16,647 bases of DNA, taken from a virus. Taxonomy: Duplodnaviria > Heunggongvirae > Uroviricota > Caudoviricetes. The DNA is taken from the IMG/VR virus record IMGVR_UViG_2531839195_000012. The stretch is one strand, 5' to 3'. Positions 3,604 to 5,524 of the stretch are shown in pieces; position 1 is the first letter of the stretch; each line of letters begins with the position of its first letter. A model generated the notes under the pieces. The model had not been told where the DNA came from. It saw nothing but the letters and a program-made list of their open reading frames with translations, and searched no databases. Both the position numbers and the translations under genes were made by a program.

Positions 3604-3971
3604 TTAAAGTAGGCTCTCCAGTTTTGTGTGATTTTTAAACACTCATTGCAAATATGAATGCCTGAAAGTTTATGATTATTAATCAACGAGTTCAATATTA
3701 ATTTATTATTTTTCAAAGTCGCACTATATAGGCATTTACTTCCGCAGTACCACCGATAGTATCGATATCAAATCAGCCTGCGGCCGCGATAACTTTCGTA
3801 ACATTCTGCCAGCGGCTTTGTTGAATAAATCAGGTTCAAGATAATCGTCTCTGCATCAGGTTAGAGTTTCAGGCAATACATCCTCTTTCTGGCATACCTG
3901 CCACTCTCGCACCATGGTCATAGCCTTTACGATCTGCATACTCACCAGACCAGAGCCCGCTCCCTTTTAGG

Positions 3972-5267
3972 CTGAGGAATCCCCAGAAAAGAAGACAGGC
4001 ATAGAGTTTTGTGATCTACTGATTGCGCTAACAAATTCAATGAGATCACCTCTATGCCTGCCCGTAAAGTATGCCAGACTTTTTTCCGTAATGCTTTAGC
4101 TTCCACGCATCAGTATCGACAAAATGCCATTATTGATTCTGCTGCTGCTTTAGTCGGTGGCGCATCTCTTTCTCTTACCAGCATTGGCCGGCATTTACCC
4201 GGTCCTGCTCGCGTGAAAGATAAAATAAAACGCGTTGACTGTCTGTTGGGTAATAAACGACTTCATAATGATATCCCTCTGATATTCAAAAATATTACAT
4301 CCATGATGACAAATAAACTGTCGTGGTGTGTTATCGCTGTTGACTGGAGCGGTTACCCTTTTCAGGAATATCATGTCCTTCGTGCCAGCCTCCTCTGCGA
4401 CGGTCGCTCTATCCCCCTGATGAGTCAGGTCTTCCCGTCAAAAAAAATAACGAGGCGGTGGAAATCGCTTTTCTGGATGCGCTTTCCGGGGCCATTTCTC
4501 CCCGGACTCGTGTTGTTATTGTTACTGATGCTGGTTTTCAAAGTGCATGGTTCCGTCATATCAAATCACAGGGATGGGATTTTATTGGTCGTATCAGGGG
4601 GGTAGTGAAGTTCAGGCTGGATAGTGACAAAGATAAGTGGCTGGACATAAAAATGTGCAGGGGGAGTTCAGAGGCAAAATACCTGGGGACGGGAACCCTG
4701 GCCCGGAAAAAACGCTCGCAGTGTGAAGGACATTTTTATCTTTATAAACATTCACCTAAAGGCAGAAAAAGCAGGCGTGCCAGAGGGAGGCCGGGCTTAC
4801 CAACAACGGAAAAAGAACAAAAAGCCGCAGGCAGAGAACCATGGTTAATATTCAGCAATACAGCTGAGTTTAATGCCAAAAAAATCATGAAACTGTACAG
4901 TCGAAGAATGCAGATAGAGCAAAACTTTCGGGATGAAAAAAGTGAACGCTTTGGTTTTGGCCTTCGGGCGAGCAGAAGTCGGAGGGGAGAGCGTTTTCTG
5001 GTATTAAGTCTACTGGTTACACTGGCCAGTATCGTACTCTGGCTACTTGGTTATCATTTTGAAAATAAAGGATTTCATTTAAAGTATCAGGCTAATAGTC
5101 TCAAAAACGAAGAGTATTGTCTTTTCTGACGCTGGCTGAAAACGTCCTGAGATTTAACCCTGAACTTCTACGACGAGCACAACCTGAAAAGATATTGTGC
5201 CGGTTGGCCAGCACTTACCGAAGTATGGTGCTGGCTTACTGATGAAAATTTTCTGGGGATCCCTCAG
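3972..5267 (+). mobile_element. IS10-like element (IS4 family), about 1.3 kb, with about 20-bp terminal inverted repeats
   Basis: Left end CTGAGGAATCCCCAGAAAA (3972..) and right end, reverse-complemented, CTGAGGGATCCCCAGAAAA (..5267) resemble IS10 termini. Flanked by an imperfect 9-bp direct repeat, CCTTTTAGG (3963..3971) and CCTTTCGGG (5268..5276). Confidence 0.7.
4054..5129 (+). pseudogene. IS4-family (IS10-like) DDE transposase, frameshifted in an A8 run (4440..4447)
   Basis: ORFs 4054..4605 and 4458..5129 overlap in different frames. Their products align colinearly with the IS10 transposase as I recall it (LGR.LP..AR.K..IKR.D.LLGN, VDWS, D-A-G-F, YS.RMQIE..FRD.KS); the second ORF begins at a GTG. 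Confidence 0.7.
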
Positions 5268-5524
5268 CCTTTCGGGGAGGAATGAGGGCTCTGATATTCT
5301 TTTGCCGTAGTTCATCGTGAAACCGTCGGATGTCATTTGGCCTGAGTGACCCATGCCTCCCAAAAGCAGAGTCGCTAGTGTTATGTAATTAGGCGGTTAA
5401 ACTTCAATTCTCAGTGTTAAGTTTGGGTAAACGCTTGTAAATGGTATTGCTAATTTTTTAATTGACTAATATTAGAAACGGTTAGTGTGATTGTATATAG
5501 ATATTTGAGTGTAAGGTATTTAAA

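Follow-up and report, generated by a model that had tools for sequence, protein, structure and literature searches.

IS10 and the Shigella flexneri phage SfII are two described systems with which the locus examined here can be compared. IS10, represented by IS10R of Tn10 on plasmid R100, inserts preferentially at hotspots whose consensus, NGCTNAGCN, is symmetric. In the genome of phage SfII (KC736978 / NC_021857), the gene SfII_26 encodes an intact 396-aa transposase and is flanked by SfII_25, which encodes an acyltransferase, and by gtrII. The SfII genome announcement lists the SfII_26 transposase among the genes that are unique to SfII (PMC3772137).

The locus lies in a viral stretch of 16,647 nucleotides (IMG/VR record IMGVR_UViG_2531839195_000012), the whole of which is called the window below. 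Sequence comparison makes it almost certain that positions 3972-5267 of the window are a copy of the insertion sequence ISSfl9, and that this copy occupies a fixed position in the SfII-type, serotype-converting prophage of S. flexneri, between an oacD-type acyltransferase gene and gtrII. The element is already catalogued, and its insertion position in phage SfII is already published; ISSfl9 itself was mentioned in no paper found in a literature search.

Identity and boundaries of the element

When the element and its flanks were searched with megablast, the same insertion, at the same site and with the same flanks, was found in phage SfII (99.2% identity) and in three complete E. coli chromosomes (99.4-99.7% identity). 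The insertion is also present in S. flexneri SFBU1023, which is 99.74% identical to the window over the surrounding 6.8 kb and differs from it inside the IS only in the lengths of two A runs. Throughout this group of copies from SfII, S. flexneri and E. coli, the mismatched 9-bp flanks and the neighbouring genes are those of the window. Copies at this site carry the RefSeq name "IS4-like element ISSfl9 family transposase", and the 90% protein cluster that holds the intact transposase bears the ISSfl9 family name many times, although one source calls a member of this cluster 'ISSfl3 ORF'. The name ISSfl9 as used here rests on the NCBI annotation of identical or near-identical (at least 99%) copies, together with the exact cluster of the restored protein. 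Additionally, a 223-aa ORF of the window (4458-5129) is identical to EIQ33109.1 from S. flexneri K-404.

An earlier note on this DNA, made from the sequence alone, had placed the element between oac and the gtr operon. The neighbours are indeed an acyltransferase gene and gtrII, but the former is distinct from the Sf6 oac, as the literature assigns the acyltransferase adjoining ISSfl9 to the SfII-borne oacD type. The limits drawn in that note for the element with its flanks (3963-5276) were correct, and the ends, the flanks and two overlapping open frames were all recovered.

Intact copies of the element, such as those of SFBU1023 (L013) and L023, are 1298 bp long. The element starts with CTGAGGAATCCCC... 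and its other end with CTGAGGGATCCCC..., and the arms of the terminal inverted repeat, CTGAGGAATCCCCAGAAAA on the left (3972-3990, plus strand) and CTGAGGGATCCCCAGAAAA on the right (5249-5267, minus strand, read inwards from 5267), are identical at 18 of 19 positions. A search of the 16.6-kb window for the terminal repeat returned only these two matches, where about 0.01 would be expected by chance, and two matches occurred in none of 200 shuffles. Both arms begin with 5'-CT, a feature of the IS10-like group of the IS4 family. The coordinates of the element and its parts are collected in Table 1.

Table 1. Features of the ISSfl9 copy and its flanks in the window
Feature	Position	Strand	Remarks
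ISSfl9 insertion sequence	3972..5267	+	1296 bp here
Left terminal inverted repeat	3972..3990	+	Like the IS10 outside end, without GATC
Right terminal inverted repeat	5249..5267	-	Like the IS10 inside end; GATC at 5258-5261, position as in IS10
Left 9-bp target-site duplication copy	3963..3971	.	CCTTTTAGG; two differences from the ancestral target
Right 9-bp target-site duplication copy	5268..5276	.	CCTTTCGGG; same as the empty site
Long hairpin	3992..4063	-	On the + strand, 3' arm covers the transposase start codon (ATG 4054); U-rich tail on the - strand
GATC (Dam) site	4013..4016	.	5' arm of the hairpin
GATC (Dam) site	4044..4047	.	3' arm of the hairpin, 7 nt upstream of the ATG
Transposase gene	4054..5243	+	Two -1 frameshifts; open pieces 4054-4605 and 4458-5129
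A8 run, first frameshift, codon 130	4440..4447	+	A9 in phage SfII and SFBU1023; plasmid variants AAAAAAACAAAA, in frame
A5 run, second frameshift, codon 352	5103..5107	+	A6 in close copies; plasmid variants in-frame AAAACCC

The SfII record (L001, KC736978) differs from the window, and from all other copies, in a cluster of changes at 5996-6057 of that record, within the left flank and the initial 50 nt of the element. Among these changes are one in the first base of the element (ATGAGG for CTGAGG) and a GAGGGAGGC stretch that would break the stem of the start-codon hairpin. The cluster may reflect a local sequencing problem in that record.

Target duplication and prophage context

The two 9-bp flanks, CCTTTTAGG and CCTTTCGGG, are identical at seven of nine positions. 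The earlier note had described this imperfect repeat and had suggested from it that the insertion was old. To recover the empty site, the outer flanks were joined without the 9-mers and run against E. coli genomes. Eight E. coli chromosomes span the junction unbroken, in prophages, and are 9 bases longer there than the query. In E. coli AR_0061 (L012), the empty site reads ...GAGCCCGCTC CCTTTCGGG GAGGAATGAGGGC..., with a single 9-mer between identical flanks. Because the empty site holds one CCTTTCGGG, the 9-bp duplication is real, and a target-site duplication of this length is a feature of the IS10-like group of the IS4 family. The right copy has kept the empty-site sequence, while the left copy has undergone two adjacent transitions since insertion (CG to TA).

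Another reading of the flanks is that they do not represent a target duplication and form either the outer part of a longer inverted repeat or a recognition sequence borne by the element. Extended to 31 nt, the inverted repeat still matches at 84%, and the flanks of independent copies are alike in following CCTNNNRGG, both of which would agree with this reading. However, exactly one 9-mer is present at the empty site, where the outer flanks are contiguous, and the occupied site exceeds it in length by the IS and a further 9 bp. Moreover, the central three bases vary freely between sites, and a palindromic flank is expected from a symmetric target preference, as with the IS10 hotspot NGCTNAGCN. 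This reading is accordingly very improbable, and the empty site rules out that the 9-mers are part of the inverted repeat.

The mismatched pair of 9-mers is common to phage SfII, S. flexneri and three E. coli prophages, all with backbones that depart from the window in other places. Since all of them share it, the insertion predates the divergence of these prophages, and the suggestion of an old insertion was borne out. The shared mismatched duplication marks a single ancient insertion, by which the lineage of SfII-type prophages can be followed in both Shigella and E. coli.

Two older fragments lie between the acyltransferase gene and ISSfl9, at about 3738-3807 and 3814-3902. One is 84% identical to the DNA invertase genes of lambdoid phages and one is about 75% identical to the IS903 transposase. 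The target of ISSfl9 was in or next to an older remnant of the IS5 family, and the annotation of E. coli AR_0061 marks this remnant at the empty site.

The wider window contains other repeats. An IS3-family element (1264 bp, with rve and HTH_21) is present at 1-718 (plus strand, partial), 8994-10258 (minus strand) and 13155-14417 (plus strand), and the three copies are 99-100% identical to one another. Two inverted copies bracket the segment with the tail-fibre, acyltransferase, ISSfl9 and gtr genes, and this pair could allow inversion or ambiguity in assembly. A second gtrA-gtrB pair (15215-16491, plus strand) is 93% identical to the first (7086-8374, minus strand), is inverted relative to it and runs off the contig end. 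Fragments that match DNA of the SfII int/xis region are found at 11606-13158 and 14418-14925, and there is a perfect 64-nt inverted repeat between 8576-8639 and 14862-14925. The window appears to contain the remnants of two serotype-converting prophages, arranged tail to tail.

The transposase gene and its frameshifts

With both A runs restored, the gene encodes a transposase of 396 aa, which is identical to the translation of the SFBU1023 copy and differs from SfII_26 by 2 aa. A single intact ORF of 396-397 aa is present in SfII, SFBU1023 and an E. fergusonii plasmid, whereas in the window the ORF is broken by two homopolymer frameshifts whose reality is doubtful. With NCBIfam transpos_IS4_2 (cut-off 152), the intact protein reaches 362.7 bits, and with Pfam DDE_Tnp_1, the domain of which falls within the second open frame (4458-5129), it reaches 70 bits. 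A PDB sequence search with the intact transposase gave no meaningful match, and the Tn5 transposase was missed by single-sequence phmmer.

The restored protein is colinear with the IS10R transposase (Tn10, plasmid R100), with 35% identity over 357 aa (E = 2e-67). Its catalytic residues D97, D159 and E289 and its motif Y282-R285-E289-K296 align with D97, D161 and E292 and with Y285-R288-E292-K299 of IS10, respectively, and the spacing Y-(2)-R-(3)-E-(6)-K is the DDE signature of the IS10-like group of the IS4 family. The earlier note had regarded the transposase as a diverged IS4-family member colinear with that of IS10, and the identity of 35% together with the matches to transpos_IS4_2 (363 bits) and DDE_Tnp_1 agrees with this. 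Judged from sequence, the description of a diverged IS10-like IS4-family element is accurate, and the element is distinct from IS10.

This copy as sequenced would give no full-length transposase, owing to two -1 shifts in A runs. Intact ISSfl9 copies have A9 and A6 where the window has A8 and A5 (Table 1). The shift in the A8 run, which had been recognized previously, falls between the first and second catalytic aspartates. The shift in the A5 run had been overlooked; its A6 counterpart is found in the close copies, which are at least 99% identical and in SfII-prophage context, while AAAACCC, of the same length, is found in plasmid copies of about 96-97% identity. Because of this second frameshift, the open frame stops early, at 5129. 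The early end of the transposase relative to the right end was thus correctly observed in the earlier note, but its cause had escaped notice. When both runs are restored, the transposase frame runs on to 5241-5243, which leaves 24 nt to the right end (13 nt in IS10).

The two alleles differ in distribution. The A5 allele was found in the window only. The A8 allele is found also in three complete E. coli genomes and in the viral contig L022, and a 261-aa ORF call points to it in two further drafts of S. flexneri.

Whether these shifts are real can be judged from the differences between the window and its closest relatives. Over the 6.8 kb shared with SFBU1023, all 10 indels are in homopolymers and nine of them are one-base contractions in the window, against nine substitutions. 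Relative to phage SfII, there are seven single-base indels, every one a contraction of an A or T run of at least six. All single-base indels relative to either SfII or SFBU1023 are homopolymeric, and with one exception the run is shorter in the window. In the sequence as it stands, these indels create one frameshift in the acyltransferase gene, two in the IS transposase gene and three in gtrII. Such a pattern is what systematic homopolymer under-calling produces, and it is probably due to error in the draft assembly. The K-404 draft is presumably one of a set of pyrosequenced Shigella genomes. The homopolymer single-base indels relative to SfII or SFBU1023 are at window positions 1712, 3428, 4440, 5103, 5847, 6061, 6660, 9027 and 9059, with a further one at 8937.

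Based on this evidence, the second frameshift (A5) is likely, though by no means certainly, an artefact, and for the first (A8) the chances of an artefact are about even. The A8 allele would be due either to repeated miscalling of a run of nine bases or to true slippage. For the second shift at least, and possibly for both, a homopolymer miscall in the draft assembly seems likelier than a real mutation.

It is also conceivable that the IS has truly decayed, with both A-run contractions real; the element would then be a dead passenger, and the SfII prophage around it would be degraded, with oacD and gtrII inactivated as well. Shigella genomes contain many pseudogenes, and decay would fit the one frameshift in the acyltransferase gene and the three in gtrII, the recurrence of the A8 allele in other assemblies and the gtrII A7 allele at 6061, which is common to the window and E. 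coli FDAARGOS_144. On the other hand, the ratio of homopolymer contractions to substitutions relative to SFBU1023, and the direction of these changes, are typical of homopolymer under-calling and not of natural divergence. Furthermore, it is unlikely that six frameshifts would be restricted to three adjacent genes with no further damage. True decay is therefore possible but rather unlikely.

A further possibility, which is improbable, is that the A9 tract at codon 130 is a real slippage-prone switch and that the A8 (off) alleles in the window, the three E. coli chromosomes and the Shigella drafts are genuine. If so, transcriptional or replicative slippage on A8/A9 would occasionally restore transposase synthesis, and the plasmid lineage would have stabilized the site by breaking the run (AAAAAAACAAAA). 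The frameshifts in the IS, oacD and gtrII follow a pattern of homopolymer contraction, and support at the level of reads would be needed before they are taken as pseudogenization or as a sign that serotype 2 modification has been lost.

The start-codon hairpin and Dam sites

The long hairpin that covers the transposase start codon has a folding energy of -37.1 kcal/mol on the minus strand (z = -6.96) and of -31.7 kcal/mol on the plus strand (z = -4.8). A stable stem-loop on the antisense strand over the start codon is a feature of the RNA-OUT type in IS10, and the region of IS10 that encodes RNA-OUT has the same fold geometry as the ISSfl9 hairpin. The stem is nearly invariant between ISSfl9 and relatives of 68-76% identity, with changes in the loop only, and it gives no covariation signal, as it does not vary. 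An Rfam search of 3900-5350 with E values up to 10 returned no RNA-OUT, and the matches of miRNA models on the hairpin were chance ones with E values above 5. A consensus promoter scan of the same interval found no sigma-70-like site; by eye, a weak extended -10-like sequence, TGGCATACT, is present on the minus strand near 4070-4080. In its anatomy, the hairpin is a candidate counterpart of the IS10 RNA-OUT or fold-back stem.

The element contains three GATC sites in total, two in the arms of the hairpin and one in the right terminal repeat. IS10R has two, one in the promoter and one in the inside end.

If it acts as its IS10 homologue does, the transposase would bind the two terminal inverted repeats of about 19 bp, excise the element by a cut-and-paste reaction through hairpin intermediates and insert it by 9-bp staggered cuts into the symmetric preferred target CCTNNNRGG. 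The start-codon hairpin may act as an antisense RNA or as a fold-back structure, and a read-through transcript of the plus strand would form the same stem and hide the start codon. The Dam sites, which as in IS10 lie around the promoter and hairpin and within the right end, may likewise take part in control. Both antisense RNA and Dam control of ISSfl9 are putative and are suggested by the layout of the element.

Other copies and comparison with IS10

Recurrence of the terminal repeats at other copies had been named as a point on which the element could be checked, and such copies were found in other replicons, where their surroundings are unrelated. A copy with an intact 397-aa ORF adjoins traT on an E. 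fergusonii IncF plasmid, and a copy with the right end deleted is present in a family of E. coli plasmids and in metagenome contigs. One E. coli chromosome has a further copy, which is degenerate and truncated, and the metagenome contig L020 has a full copy. End-sequence scans of genome, metagenome and viral collections gave few loci, mostly in the SfII context or in one plasmid context, and the only new full copy from these scans is that of L020.

Genomes with matches have a median of one matching place and a maximum of three, with distant relatives counted, and the chromosome of S. flexneri SFBU1023 has a single match to the 31-nt left-end pattern. Every genome examined has one copy, which suggests that the element is hardly active at present, if at all. 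Its behaviour is that of an IS carried along by the prophage, rather than of one that is expanding.

The flanking 9-mers of the independent copies are CCTTTCGGG at the SfII empty site, CCTGAAAGG and CCTTATGGG on the two sides of the E. fergusonii copy, and CCTATAAGG and CCTACAAGG elsewhere, while L020 has a shortened pair, CCTTATGG / CTTATGGG. All independent 9-mers in this small sample fit the palindromic pattern CCTNNNRGG, which is what a symmetric target preference would give. When the empty site of the E. fergusonii copy was sought, its two flanks were never contiguous in 3878 matching plasmids. This copy is at a rearranged junction, and the match of its flanks at six of nine positions is uninformative on the fidelity of duplication.

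A terminator-like hairpin segment of about 50 nt (CACCTCCTGAGGAGGTGGCTTTTCAGAATGCCCCC...) flanks the IS at a number of loci (L004-L007, L015 and L018-L021). It adjoins the left end in the E. coli plasmids, in the matching metagenome and MAG contigs and in one E. coli chromosome, where the upstream genes are different, and it adjoins the right end, in inverted orientation, in L020. Either this segment is a hotspot that was hit twice in opposite orientations or it travels with the element.

Related elements also exist outside the ISSfl9 type. Unnamed IS4-family relatives in E. coli and Salmonella houtenae (L008-L010) have 68-76% DNA identity to ISSfl9. They share its CTGAGGAATCCCC end, and their 5' hairpin is nearly the same, but this hairpin stands 11-12 bases further from the end. 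Where the flanks of ISSfl9 end in AGG / CCT, those of these relatives end in GCG / CGC (GCG| / |CGC), which suggests that members of this small group differ in their symmetric target preference.

ISSfl9 and IS10 share much of their organization. Each end of ISSfl9 is identical to the corresponding end of IS10R (left to outside, right to inside) at 12 of the first 13 bases, in agreement with the IS10-like termini of the earlier note. Both have GATC at the same position of the inside-type end, one DDE transposase with Y-R-E-K, a 9-bp duplication of a symmetric target and a long antisense-strand hairpin over the start codon. The near match of the ends and the same overall layout might therefore suggest that the element is simply a mutated IS10. 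However, a transposase identity of only 35% refutes this reading. In addition, the full-length or high-identity megablast matches are ISSfl9-type copies only, and the remaining hits are partial and 60-80% identical, those inspected being other IS4-family elements. The difference in length and start-codon position also speaks against it, and its probability is negligible.

As a distinct element, ISSfl9 is 31 bp shorter than IS10 (1298 and 1329 bp, respectively), with the ATG at bp 83 instead of bp 108 and a distance from the stop codon to the right end of 24 nt instead of 13 nt. Despite the common fold geometry, the sequence of its hairpin is unrelated to that of IS10 and is not matched by the Rfam RNA-OUT model. 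The CCTNNNRGG preference and the IS10-like layout of hairpin and Dam sites are small additions to the knowledge of IS10-group elements, the target consensus of ISSfl9 being CCTNNNRGG where that of IS10 is NGCTNAGCN.
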